This document shows, one piece after another, positions 42,001 to 45,000 of a stretch of DNA of 64,000 nucleotides. The position numbers were made by a program. Location of the stretch: the NCBI RefSeq assembly GCF_050320075.1, contig NZ_CP190018.1, one strand, 5' to 3'. The stretch is from Escherichia coli (GTDB lineage: Bacteria > Pseudomonadota > Gammaproteobacteria > Enterobacterales > Enterobacteriaceae). Every line of letters starts with the position of its first letter. Position 1 is the first letter of the stretch.

Positions 42001-45000
42001 TACTCTTTCAGATACAACGCATCTTCTGCGGAACTGGGGTTAGAGGCACCCAGAAGCAGACCAAAATTCAGGCTGCCGCTGTTTAAATCATCCGAGCGTT
42101 TAATGGCGACTTTCGACTCGCTCATATAGCGAGGCTGGCTGAAGATAGCCAGATAGATCAGCAGCACCGCCATCGGTGCCAGAATGATGATTTTCGCCAG
42201 GTGTTTTTGGATATCTGCCAGTGAGATGGCAGACAGACGAGCACGCATCCAGGATACGGCAGACTTCACTTTTATCAACATGTAACGATTATCAAAGTTT
42301 CAGTGGGGCGCAAACTCAATGAGAGACTAACCTCTCGCACCCCGTTGCTTAATTAGTCGAAAATGCGCACAAGGCCAGTGACTTTATTTGCCTTGTTGGT
42401 CACCAATAACGTTGAGACGCGGTGCTTTTGCATTTTTTCTTCCGCTTCAATGATCATGGTGTCTTCCGGTAGCGTCAGCGGTTCACGTGTCATCATCTGC
42501 GCAGCCGTGGCGGATGTCAGAGAATCCTCTTTTTCCATAAAGCGACGCAGGTCACCGTCGGTGATAATGCCCACTAGCCCACCTTCTGCGTCTTCTACCA
42601 TCACCATTCCCTGGCATCCGCTGGTGATACGTTGAATCACGGTTTTAAATGACGCATCCAGCTGTACCGCAGGAACATCATGCTGCATGACATCAGCAAC
42701 GCGGGTCAGCAGGCGACGACCTAATGAACCGCCCGGGTGATAGCGCGCAAAATCATTCGGCATAAATTTGCGTTGGTGGATCATGGCAATCGCCAGCGCA
42801 TCGCCGATCGCCATCGTCAGCGTGGTAGACGTTGTTGGTGCAAGATTATTCGGGCAGGTTTCATTCGCCATGTGGAGTTCCAGCACGGCATCAGCATTTT
42901 TCGCCAGCGTGGAATTTCCATTATTGGTAATGGCGATAATTCGGTTGCCGAAATTTTTCAGTGAAGGAACTAGCTTGAGGATTTCATCCGTTTCACCGCT
43001 GGCAGAAATAAGGATCAGAAGATCGTAAGGCGTAATCATGCCCAGATCGCCATGGAAAGCTTCTGCAGGATGAATAAAGAAACTAGGCGTACCCGTAGAG
43101 GCCAGCGTCGCTGACATTTTACGACCGACATGCCCTGATTTACCCATTCCCGAAAGAATAACGTGACCTTTACAGTTCATTATCAAATTAAGGACACGCT
43201 GGTACTGCCCGGAATCCAGTTGTTTAGACAAGTTTTGTAATGCTGCGCCTTGTTCTGCCAGAGTCTGGCGAACAGAGGTAATTAGATATGGATCGATAGT
43301 ACTGCTCTGGTCATCAGGTAAATGTCTTTCAGACATATCAGCTCCTTTGCACGGAAATAATGCCACAGTCACAACAAACCCGAACCCACTATAATTTATT
43401 TATGCTAAATCAATGGGTTGTAACAAAATTTTTAATGAATATAAAACCATGGTCAGTCCATGCTTATATGCAGGACTTATCACCTTCTTATTAAGTCGCA
43501 ATGTCTCATGGAGGTGCGAAGATGCTGCAATATTACAGGCGAGAAGGGGAACCAAATTTTGCCCACCTATTTAACACACCCCTACATTATGAACAAGGAA
43601 TTTAGGATTTTTATCATTTATTAAAATGTTTCCTACTTGACTATTAAGACCAAAAACAATTTATCAATTGATTATTTCCTTGTAAAAAAAGAACGTATGA
43701 CTATGTTATTAATAAATAAAACACGCAAATAATGGTGATGTTGTTTTGTGATTAACTATTTAAGTGCGGCATAATAAACAGGTTGACAATTTCTATGTAA
43801 AGAAGAGGAAAATAATAAAATTTTAGCGGTGACTATTGAATGATATGATAGTTGTGGTGTTGATTATTTCTGGTAATGAATGCGGAATTAAATCTGGCCG
43901 GATTGTATTTTTTCTATATCTATTTTTCAGGAGATTATTATTAAATAGAAAAATAACAATGGTGATTATCTCCGGTTGAGCTGGAGTCACGTATGCCAGC
44001 GAGTGCTTTCTTCCGGGCCTTCCTTCACTTCAGAGAAAGAGCCTATGGAAAAGAGGCAATCATCAGGCTCTTTTTGAGTCATATGCGCCGATAATCAACT
44101 GTCTTGAACGTAAAAATTATGGAGCAACATGATGCTACGATTCATTTCACTCTTCGTTCTTTCTGAGCATTGCGTTCAGGATGGTCAGCAATTTACGCAT
44201 ACAGTCAACCAGCGCCACTTTTTTGGTTTTTCCGGCTGCTGGCAGATGCATGTAAAACGCCTCTTTCACCGGATTAAACCAGGTTACCACAAGCGCTGCC
44301 ATGTGCAGGGCTGCTCTTGCCTCCGTACGCGCACTGGCGTCGTTCGGCCAGCAGATATGTGTGGGATAACAGGGATGTTATGTGAACTGAACTGTGTTTT
44401 GTTAGCGGGGGATGTTTATTGATGATTCGGGAGTGTTTAAGACCTGATGGCGTTATGCTCCCAAGTTTATTTTATATAAAGATCCAAAAGCAAAAACCCG
44501 CCTTGTGGGCGGGTTCTTAAGAATTAGTGGTGCCCGGACTCGGAATCGAACCAAGGACACGGGGATTTTCAATCCCCGTGTCATAAAATTCAGATAGTTA
44601 CGGGCATGTCAAGTTGTTGTTGAAGTCTTTCATGCGCATCCGATCACATAACTGTCGATAGGACGCAGATATGAAAATACTTCCCGTTGTCTCAACAAAA
44701 GGTGGCGAAGGTAAATCAACACAATCCGCTAACCTGGCTGGTTTTCTCGCCGATGCAGGTATCCGTACCCTGCTGATTGACGGAGATCATGCTCAGCCCA
44801 CGGCAAGCAACATCTTTCCGCTGACATATGAAGCGTCAGCCGGTCTTTTTGAGTTGCTGATGCGCACGGCTGACCTCAGTCATCCCGATAACATCATTTC
44901 CCGCACGGCTATCGACGGACTCGATCTGATAGTCTCCAATGACCCTCATGAGCAGTTAAAAACTGCGATGCTTCACGCCCCGGATGGTCGTCTGCGCCTC

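Follow-up and report, generated by a model that had tools for sequence, protein, structure and literature searches.

A tRNA-Phe fragment beside the kps capsule genes of Escherichia coli as the very probable right-hand junction of an ICEEc2-like element in pheV

In a window of 64,000 nucleotides from Escherichia coli (contig NZ_CP190018.1 of assembly GCF_050320075.1), the junction next to the kps capsule locus is very probably the attR site of an ICEEc2-like integrative and conjugative element (ICE) of the PAPI-1/pKLC102/SPI-7/PFGI-1 class, which inserted site-specifically in the tRNA-Phe gene pheV. The type of element is already known, and the site is an ordinary right-hand junction of a known ICE family at pheV, beside capsule genes. 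Previous studies have reported that ICEs of the ICEEc2 type insert at pheV and pheU (PMC11537424), that ICEEc2 is able to excise (PMC6761156), and that such ICEs transfer experimentally, inserting in pheV, pheU or malS (PMC13127887). Their integrase has been placed in the IntKX subgroup together with that of PAPI-1 (PMC8138268).

The chromosomal half of attR is 'pheV, the displaced last 50 nt of tRNA-Phe (44528..44577, minus strand). It is identical to nt 27-76 of the E. coli tRNA, from G27 to the CCA end, and comprises the anticodon arm, variable loop, T-arm, 3' strand of the acceptor and CCA. This match was found once in the window and never in 100 dinucleotide-preserving shuffles. No full-length tRNA was detected in the window by ARAGORN, and Rfam tRNA matches stayed below the gathering score. 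Thus, the initial annotation was right in recognizing a 50-nt 3' fragment of tRNA-Phe and in stating that only this part of the gene is present. The fragment is the same as the intact pheV of the ICE-free strain Ecol_545 up to 44577 and diverges beyond it; it is probably silent.

Directly 3' of the fragment, a 12-bp G+C-rich stem with a 5-nt loop is followed by UUUUUGCUUUU (44491..44519, minus strand), which is the arrangement of an intrinsic (Rho-independent) terminator, a G+C-rich hairpin and U tract downstream of a gene. Its folding energy is -19.5 kcal/mol (z = -4.4), and none of 200 shuffles folded as well. The 48 nt that bear the terminator (44480-44527) were also matched in genomes without the remaining kps flank, and they therefore represent the native 3' flank of pheV. 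This agrees with the earlier proposal of a native terminator on the capsule side, which stayed with the displaced fragment.

On the other side, the sequence diverges from attB exactly at 44578. A terminal non-coding segment of the ICE (44578..44670, plus strand), the attP arm of the parA side, is followed by the first ICE gene, a soj-like parA that encodes a partition ATPase of the ParA family (44671..45549, plus strand). Its start lies 94 nt from the fragment, close to the distance of about 95 bp at which ICE genes had been said to begin. The left ~19.4 kb of the ICE (44578..64000, plus strand) continues past the window end and contains, according to NCBIfam and the PGAP annotation of the identical region, parA, SPI-7-type dnaB, PFGI-1-type parB, STY4528, PFL_4669, topB, STY4534, ssb, rpn and pilL, as well as a STAXI RNA (59365-59518). 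PGAP names agree for the ORFs matched by NCBIfam (46545-47996, 47944-49635, 53931-55196, 56235-56960, 56977-58995 and 59686-60150). The dnaB_SPI-7_type model scored 684.5 bits against a curated cut-off of 655, and the ICE_PFGI_1_parB, STY4528, PFL_4669, TopB and STY4534 models all exceeded their curated cut-offs. The window thus holds the backbone maintenance and replication gene set of a PAPI-1/pKLC102/SPI-7/PFGI-1-class ICE.

Because the window stops inside the ICE, the far end is known only from a proxy. The closest complete genome, YZLc1-3, was used, which is 100% identical at the junction and identical over 16.6 kb of the ICE; it differs from the window in at least one ISCro1 insertion (in rpn), which the window lacks. 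Its far end, ~80 kb off, contains genes for a UvrD-like helicase, a TraI relaxase and a tyrosine integrase, then tRNA-Phe, yqgA and speC. The MobH/TraI relaxase of the PFGI-1 class (192.9 bits vs a cut-off of 161.4), a TraD coupling protein, a GI-type type IV secretion system (T4SS) and genes annotated for a type IVB pilus are present in YZLc1-3, in the part that corresponds to DNA outside the window. The integrase, a tyrosine recombinase of 329 aa encoded 197 nt from the full-length tRNA-Phe, has XerC/XerD/XerA-like matches below equivalog cut-offs. An Xer-like (IntKX) integrase is thus located in the proxy at the end opposite parA, beside the rebuilt tRNA, and the intact pheV and integrase that had been predicted beyond the window were both recovered there, with yqgA and speC next in order. 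For the genome of the window itself, GTGTCGGTGGTTCGATTCCGCCTCCGGGCACCA preceded by the 5' half of pheV is expected ~75-85 kb beyond 44578, adjoining yqgA.

A three-way alignment was made of attB from Ecol_545, attR from the window and attL from YZLc1-3. The unsplit site of Ecol_545 has the order kpsF, IS110 remnant, tRNA-Phe (pheV), yqgA and speC, and the alignment shows pheV cleanly and reciprocally split, in that attR equals attB up to 44577 and attL equals attB from tRNA nt 48 in the 5' direction. A search for an exact second copy of the 50-mer at the far ICE end was negative, and a chimeric copy identical at 46 of 50 positions was therefore recognized. Hence, the flanking direct repeats are tRNA-derived and 50 nt long, with an identical core of 22 nt. 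The second repeat suggested as a check does exist in the proxy, but with a variant T-arm rather than as an exact copy. Among relatives, attL in TUM9803 terminates with a 23-bp repeat of the P4-GI type, and the attR region of SCU-171 is broken by an IS66 element and was unusable for comparison.

The 22-nt core, GGGGATTGAAAATCCCCGTGTC in tRNA sense (44556..44577, minus strand), is identical in attB, attL and attR, and the crossover must therefore fall inside it; the positions at which attL and attR differ (44539-40 and 44554-55) are outside it. In strain 64.1, the same ICE is found in malS as a secondary insertion. The sole sequence common to attP and the malS target is TCAATCCC, and both malS junctions switch within it. 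Because malS and attP have only this sequence in common, strand exchange would occur at tRNA nt 28-35, within GGGATTGA (44569..44576, minus strand; TCAATCCC on the plus strand), i.e., in the 5' anticodon stem and the start of the loop rather than at the 3' end. This putative overlap region is defined by one natural secondary-site insertion (malS, strain 64.1). Thus, of the previous claim that the ICE integrated into the 3' end of pheV, the target gene is upheld by the attB/attL/attR split, while the extreme 3' end is replaced by a probable position in the anticodon stem and loop, to which the malS junctions point.

The full-length tRNA-Phe at attL differs from canonical pheV at four positions, which form two compensated pairs in the T-stem (C49-G65 to G49-C65 and U50-A64 to G50-C64). 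Since the ICE supplies a foreign T-arm with compensated pairs, the resident pheV is chimeric yet a canonical tRNA. It is recognized by ARAGORN as tRNA-Phe(gaa) and reaches 69.1 bits against the Rfam tRNA model, all its pairs being standard, and its cloverleaf energy is -35.1 kcal/mol versus -32.1 for canonical pheV. The ICE-borne T-arm, GGTGG/CCGCC, is foreign to E. coli and native to Marinobacter, Vibrio, Photorhabdus and others, and the chimeric 76-nt sequence occurs as full-length tRNA-Phe at 36 loci in other gammaproteobacteria. Twenty-two E. coli genomes carry the segment with the integrase and the chimeric tRNA at 100% identity to the query. T-stem pairs at 49-65 and 50-64 reportedly tune EF-Tu affinity, according to work from the Uhlenbeck laboratory. 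It is conceivable, albeit unlikely, that each integration of this ICE lineage overwrites the host T-stem with a foreign allele, that the tRNA-Phe pool of the host could be altered to a measurable degree by ICE traffic, and that the T-arm is a record of previous hosts. Strain 64.1 has a mosaic attP variant of the CTTGG...CCGCC form; if this idea were true, its re-entry into pheV or pheU would give a mispaired and probably defective tRNA-Phe.

On the capsule side, kpsF, annotated by PGAP as a KpsF/GutQ family isomerase, is the first gene of capsule region 1 (42353..43336, minus strand), with kpsE, kpsD, kdsB and others downstream of it (PGAP); it marks the chromosomal side of attR. An IS110-family remnant had been noted between kpsF and 'pheV, and it was indeed found at 44147..44329 (minus strand), the equivalent of which is labelled by PGAP as 'IS110 family transposase, incomplete, missing N-terminus'. 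NCBIfam NF033542 matches it over profile positions 281-342 of 343 only (E = 1.4e-8), i.e., the C-terminal ~60 aa, and the score of 34 bits against a cut-off of 140 is far from that of a full-length DEDD transposase (~343 profile positions). This tail had also been described as frameshifted and as a sign of further decay of the junction, and both descriptions had to be abandoned. Three-frame translation gave no evidence of a frameshift, and addition of an upstream alternative-frame segment left the HMM match unextended. Because this frameshift-corrected construct gave no longer NF033542 match, the remnant is a plain 5' truncation. Furthermore, ICE-free strains carry the identical remnant, and as a piece of the kps flank it recurs in 1606 of the 5426 complete genomes. 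Therefore, it is not decay of the ICE junction; it is a fixed component of the kps region-1 flank, older than and unrelated to the ICE.

The RefSeq annotation offers a different interpretation of the junction. PGAP annotates a 'tRNA-Ser' at 44528-44605 (minus strand), which combines the fragment with the first 28 nt of the ICE (44578-44605), and this could be taken as a real, expressed tRNA gene of 78 nt. Among the matches listed, tRNA-Ser is annotated under or beside the junction in ~26 genomes and tRNA-OTHER in two more, and six of the seven nucleotides at the ICE-side 5' end (GCCCGTA) pair with the 3' strand of the acceptor. However, ARAGORN recognized no tRNA, whether in the window or in the isolated 44528-44605 sequence, and the best Rfam score was 17.7 bits to tRNA-Sec, compared with a gathering score of 47 and with 69.1 for chimeric pheV; neither detectors nor covariance models thus see a complete cloverleaf. 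The sequence has no D-arm, its anticodon loop reads GAA (Phe) and offers no Ser anticodon, its ICE-side flank is not conserved across ICE lineages, and the minus strand upstream of it showed nothing resembling a promoter. A functional tRNA gene is hardly credible here; the PGAP call is an artefact, and one that recurs in RefSeq as 'tRNA-Ser' or 'tRNA-OTHER' at attR. A decayed full-length tRNA in attP was considered and rejected: the pairing reaches 6/7 in the window lineage (shuffle p ~0.04) and 7/7 in the MS1657 lineage (p ~0.007), it is not significant in three other lineages, and the flank is unconserved. We keep the pairing as a mere hint that explains the pseudo-tRNA calls of PGAP.

Even with a tRNA-Phe fragment accepted, attR could be a fixed relic, a dead scar without attL partner or integrase, in which the ICE was truncated or rearranged in the window's genome and excision was lost. 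The window ends at 64000, still within the ICE, and relatives with rearranged ends are seen in TUM9803 (P4-GI type 23-bp repeat), SCU-171 (IS66) and YZLc1-3 (IS insertions). On the other hand, the far end in the nearest genome, YZLc1-3, is complete, with pheV at full length and the 329-aa integrase intact, and the integrase-plus-tRNA segment is unchanged in the 22 genomes mentioned above, which makes a relic highly improbable. The fragment could also belong to a classical P4-integrase GI-pheV pathogenicity island that includes kps, with the ICE merely adjacent. The pheV locus frequently hosts GI-pheV islands whose direct repeats derive from the tRNA (PMC11537424), and APEC E19035 and FDAARGOS_1300 have the ICE attR fragment followed by a P4-type integrase. 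However, P4-type islands have mostly imperfect repeats of 19-23 bp that come from the extreme 3' end (PMC11537424), whereas the repeat at attR is 50 nt long and exact, begins in the anticodon stem and directly abuts ICE DNA. In addition, where no ICE is present, attB combines an intact pheV with this same IS110 remnant and terminator and lacks a P4 integrase. The site does not qualify as the attR of a P4-integrase GI-pheV as described in Table 1 of PMC11537424, its neighbour being an ICE with an Xer-like integrase, and we give this island origin almost no chance.

The junctions show how the attR of this ICEEc2-like element arose. The Xer-like (IntKX-type) tyrosine integrase of the ICE recombined attP, which itself bears a copy of tRNA-Phe nt 27-76, with pheV. 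The last 50 nt of the chromosomal gene were displaced together with the native terminator, ~80 kb away, to their present place beside the kps capsule locus. The 5' 26 nt of pheV were joined to the ICE-borne 3' part, giving a full-length tRNA-Phe, now devoid of its terminator, beside the integrase on the yqgA/speC side. Excision should restore a fully canonical pheV as attB and a circular attP, predicted to read GCCCGTAAC...GACAC, then GGGGATTGAAAATCCCCGTGTC, then GGTGGTTCGATTCCGCCTCCGGGCACCACCTTACATC, and conjugative transfer may follow. An outward promoter beside int, which might drive parA once the element is circular, was also considered, but the one candidate (TTGACA-17-AATCAT, L002 39556-39584; 1 site vs 0.7 expected) was not significant. 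The stretch from the att core to parA contained no promoter-like site.

With 44578 as the first ICE base, the ICE boundary is now precise, and the hotspot resolves into three layers, namely a core pheV flank (from 44480), the kps island that includes the IS110 remnant, and the ICE. The chimeric T-arm together with the malS secondary site provides a cheap, sequence-only map of strand exchange for this integrase family. ICEs of the ICEEc2 type at pheV actively move genes in E. coli, and the YZLc1-3 copy, with an identical junction, carries ISApl1-mcr-1.1. IS insertions may have disabled particular ICE copies, such as ISApl1-mcr-1 beside traF and ISCro1 in rpn (YZLc1-3). Literature searches found no paper that unites mcr-1, an integrative and conjugative element, tRNA-Phe and E. 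coli, and none on strain YZLc1-3. The capsule locus directly adjoins the ICE, which raises co-mobilization of kps as a possibility.

ICEEc2 of avian pathogenic E. coli BEN374, reportedly described by Roche et al. in 2010 (J Bacteriol 192:5026), is said to belong to the pKLC102/PAGI-2 family. Judged by descriptions, the ICE of the window resembles it as an E. coli PAPI-like ICE with a tRNA-Phe target (pheV/pheU) and an IntKX/Xer-like integrase (PMC11537424, PMC6761156, PMC8138268). The hosts of the window-type ICE are also mostly poultry isolates, whereas the cargo varies between copies, as in YZLc1-3 with ISApl1-mcr-1.1. SPI-7 of Salmonella Typhi also has a tRNA-Phe target and a partial tRNA duplication of ~50 bp. 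NCBIfam names window proteins dnaB_SPI-7_type, STY4528 and STY4534, and the type IVB pil operon of the proxy YZLc1-3 includes pilV and a shufflon. SPI-7 differs in its host species, its site (pheU, not pheV) and its cargo (Vi capsule and SopE phage), and it is considered mostly immobile. PAPI-1, pKLC102 and PFGI-1 of Pseudomonas share with our ICE soj/parA at one end and an Xer-like integrase of the IntKX subgroup at the other (PMC8138268), as well as a MobH/TraI relaxase and a GI-type T4SS (TIGR037xx proteins), but their target is tRNA-Lys instead of tRNA-Phe (PMC6761156). The P4 islands at GI-pheV (PAI-pheV of CFT073, 536, EC958 and others) use the same tRNA landing site beside kps (PMC11537424, PMC7545054). 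They differ in having an integrase of the intP4 family, imperfect 19-23-bp repeats of the extreme 3' end only, and no conjugation genes. An anticodon-loop class of tRNA integration sites was reportedly defined by Williams in 2002 (Nucleic Acids Res 30:866). The ICE of the window resembles this class in its probable crossover in the anticodon stem/loop, and the tRNA is rebuilt because attP supplies the whole part from that point to the 3' end.

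The 3' 50 nt of tRNA-Phe (GGGGATTGAAAATCCCCGTGTCCTTGGTTCGATTCCGAGTCCGGGCACCA, nt 27-76 of the E. coli tRNA) are present on the minus strand at window 44528-44577 as the only exact match in the window, compared with none in 100 shuffles even with three mismatches. ARAGORN found no tRNA in the whole window and an Rfam scan found none at the gathering score, consistent with the partial gene described in the initial annotation. Directly 3' of the fragment, a terminator-like hairpin (44519-44491, minus strand; 12 pairs and a 5-nt loop, followed by UUUUUGCUUUU) has a folding energy of -19.5 kcal/mol (z = -4.4), a stability that no shuffle out of 200 attained. 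Since the 48 nt at 44480-44527, terminator included, also match genomes devoid of the remaining kps flank, they represent the native pheV flank, and the terminator previously proposed for this fragment is indeed the intact native one.

On the other side, parA starts at 44671, 94 nt from the fragment, in line with the distance of about 95 bp noted earlier for the first genes of the integrative and conjugative element (ICE). When ORFs from this position to the window end were scored against curated cut-offs, those for SPI-7-type DnaB (684.5 bits; cut-off 655), PFGI-1-type ParB, STY4528, PFL_4669, topoisomerase III and STY4534 exceeded them. The STAXI RNA motif (59365-59518, plus strand; Rfam, 139 bits) is part of the ICE, with topB on one side and the STY4534 gene on the other. 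In addition, the C0719 sRNA was found in the chromosomal part (9092-9313, minus strand; Rfam, 298 bits).

The closest complete genome, E. coli YZLc1-3 (chicken, Yangzhou; NZ_CP123240.1), shows 100% identity with the window across the 1.2-kb junction and 16.6 kb of the ICE, and served as proxy for the far end of the element. It carries an ISCro1 (IS66 family, ~2.7 kb) in an rpn gene of the ICE (L001 25121-27736) that is absent from the window (~61214/61215); the window thus derives from a sibling of YZLc1-3 outside the set of complete genomes. Its ICE, ~80.3 kb long as counted from the tRNA fragment, contains GI-type T4SS genes, TraD and a type IVB pilus operon with pilV, and its far end shows the order UvrD-like helicase, TraI relaxase, tyrosine integrase, tRNA-Phe, yqgA and speC. 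Thus, the full-length pheV and the integrase predicted beyond the window are both found ~80.3 kb away in this proxy. The same ICE also has, beyond the window and beside traF, an ISApl1-mcr-1.1-pap2-ISApl1 structure (L002 13803-19612; NZ_CP123240.1 924802-930611), a Tn6330-like colistin-resistance unit; no paper on this mcr-1.1-bearing ICE was found in the library searched.

The ICE-free strain Ecol_545 provided the empty site (attB), with the order kpsF, IS110 remnant, intact tRNA-Phe, yqgA and speC. In a three-way alignment with the window junction (attR) and the integrase-side junction of YZLc1-3 (attL), attR equals attB on the capsule side through 44577 and is unrelated past this position, attL equals attB on the yqgA side, and all three have a 22-nt core in common (GGGGATTGAAAATCCCCGTGTC, window 44556-44577). 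Such reciprocity is what integrase-mediated insertion should leave, and the window fragment is the displaced chromosomal 3' part of pheV, as had been suggested. The anticipated second copy of the repeat is present at the far end, but it is only 46/50 identical, and the exact 50-mer is absent there.

Insertion had been placed at the 3' end of pheV. The split of the gene is clean and reciprocal; the position of the crossover, however, is different. In turkey isolate 64.1 (NZ_CP059917.1; L136, L138) the ICE is inserted in malS, and comparison with intact malS (L139) revealed that both junctions switch from malS to ICE inside the 8-bp TCAATCCC, the only sequence that malS target and the site of the ICE itself (attP) have in common. 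In tRNA sense these 8 bp are GGGATTGA, nt 28-35 (window 44569-44576), i.e., the 5' strand of the anticodon stem and the first half of the loop. This puts the inferred crossover at the inner boundary of the 50-nt fragment rather than at the 3' end of pheV, the other ~42 nt of attP homology restoring the tRNA. Experiments have likewise yielded an ICE insertion in malS (PMC13127887, Table 2). Truncated tRNA-Phe 3' fragments also occur in various gammaproteobacteria (L017, L046, L059, L073, L074, L078, L084, L111, L118, L120 and L132); their 5' flanks are unrelated, and they begin no more than a few nt from this anticodon-stem boundary, implying that islands using this tRNA-Phe sublocation appear widespread outside E. 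coli.

The rebuilt gene is chimeric. Far-end pheV in YZLc1-3 reads ...GTGTC GGTGG TTCGATT CCGCC TCCGGGCACCA, whereas native pheV reads ...GTGTC CTTGG TTCGATT CCGAG TCCGGGCACCA; the two differ at four positions, which make up two T-stem pairs, both fully compensated (C49-G65 to G49-C65 and U50-A64 to G50-C64). With 69.1 bits on the Rfam tRNA model, no non-standard pairs, an ARAGORN call of tRNA-Phe(gaa) and a cloverleaf energy of -35.1 versus -32.1 kcal/mol for the canonical gene, the chimeric pheV still looks like a good tRNA by these predictions. Resident tRNA-Phe genes match the variant region at only about 96% (5425 genomes), and the variant T-arm is not an E. coli allele. The variant 3' end occurs in full-length tRNA-Phe of Marinobacter, Alcanivorax, Marinobacterium, Vibrio, Aliivibrio, Photorhabdus, Xenorhabdus, Idiomarina and others, 36 of these non-E. 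coli loci having the exact chimeric 76-nt gene. As more distant E. coli ICE relatives (integrase about 75-81% identical) have the canonical E. coli T-arm in attL, the foreign T-arm is a lineage marker of the ICE; it probably derives from a former host. The integrase and chimeric tRNA segment are 100% identical to the query in 22 genomes, indicating that exchange always occurred 5' of nt 49. In 64.1, the attP-derived T-arm is a mosaic (CTTGG...CCGCC) that would be mispaired, which implies that canonical and variant copies once recombined within the T-loop.

The ICE-derived DNA 3' of the rebuilt pheV (L002 39535-39730, between int and the tRNA gene) has no terminator-like site, the native one having remained beside the displaced fragment. 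Just after int, an outward promoter-like TTGACA-17-AATCAT (with TG) would point towards parA once the element is circular; statistically, this site is indistinguishable from chance, and a 42-bp deletion adjoining int removes it in 64.1.

At the equivalent of 44528-44605 (minus strand), PGAP calls a 78-nt 'tRNA-Ser' in YZLc1-3, consisting of the tRNA fragment and 28 nt of the ICE end (GCCCGTAACTATCTGAATTTTATGACAC); about 26 of the genomes listed have this call at the attR junction and two have 'tRNA-OTHER'. The first 7 nt of the ICE-end part form 6/7 pairs with the acceptor 3' strand, a complementarity of weak significance in only two of five lineages (p about 0.04 and 0.007). Against a real tRNA gene, ARAGORN rejects the segment, its best Rfam score is 17.7 bits (to tRNA-Sec), the D-arm is absent and the flank on the ICE side lacks conservation across ICE lineages. 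We treat the call as a recurrent annotation artefact at ICE junctions.

The chromosomal side comprises kpsF, kpsE, kpsD and the remainder of the group 2 capsule cluster. An IS110-family transposase remnant beside the junction was confirmed: PGAP reports one missing its N-terminus (equivalent of 44147-44329, minus strand), and the NCBIfam IS110 match is confined to the last ~60 positions (281-342 of 343). The frameshift attributed to it was not supported. Other IS110-family elements in E. coli genomes share, over part of their length, ~87% identity with the remnant (44096-44316); these are annotated as 'IS110 family RNA-guided transposase' and adjoin a 'putative zinc ribbon protein'. The flank leftward from about 44479 (remnant and kpsF upstream region) occurs at >=80% coverage in 1606 of 5426 genomes and is identical in ICE-free strains, hence a fixed part of the kps island border. 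The remnant, whose age is independent of the ICE, says nothing on decay of the junction, contrary to the earlier reading.

Among 5426 complete E. coli genomes, the exact kps-'pheV-ICE junction occurs in 9, the parA-side ICE end (>=80% coverage) in 33, the query integrase adjoining a tRNA-Phe-type site in 36 and a related ICE parA in 100; the carriers are mostly poultry and human isolates. Related ICEs in APEC E19035 (L009) and FDAARGOS_1300 (L010) show a displaced tRNA-Phe fragment that precedes a different terminator and the gene for a P4-type integrase; here the ICE landed upstream of a P4-type island already in place, and the two now form a tandem array at a single tRNA gene. In TUM9803 (NZ_CP135671.1, L137), the integrase end abuts no complete tRNA but TGGTGCC-GGACTCGGAATCGAA, the 23-bp imperfect repeat that usually marks attR of GI-pheV islands with a P4 integrase, which points to a secondary rearrangement between the ICE attL and the repeat of a resident island.

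ICEEc2, reportedly described by Roche et al. in 2010, represents E. coli in the published pKLC102/PAGI-2/PAPI family. Its described insertion hotspots are pheV and pheU (PMC11537424), its excision has been reported (PMC6761156), and it shares the IntKX integrase subgroup with PAPI-1 (PMC8138268). Such ICEs have been transferred to MG1655, where they occupied pheV, pheU or malS (PMC13127887). The details added here, namely a 46/50 repeat with a foreign compensated T-arm, a crossover placed at nt 28-35, an IS110 remnant of independent age and an artefactual tRNA-Ser call, are useful for annotation, although unsurprising to a specialist. Classical GI-pheV islands have a P4-type integrase and 19-23-bp imperfect repeats (PMC11537424), which differ from the 50-nt fragment of the window; the latter marks the attR junction that an ICE of a known kind has left at an established hotspot.
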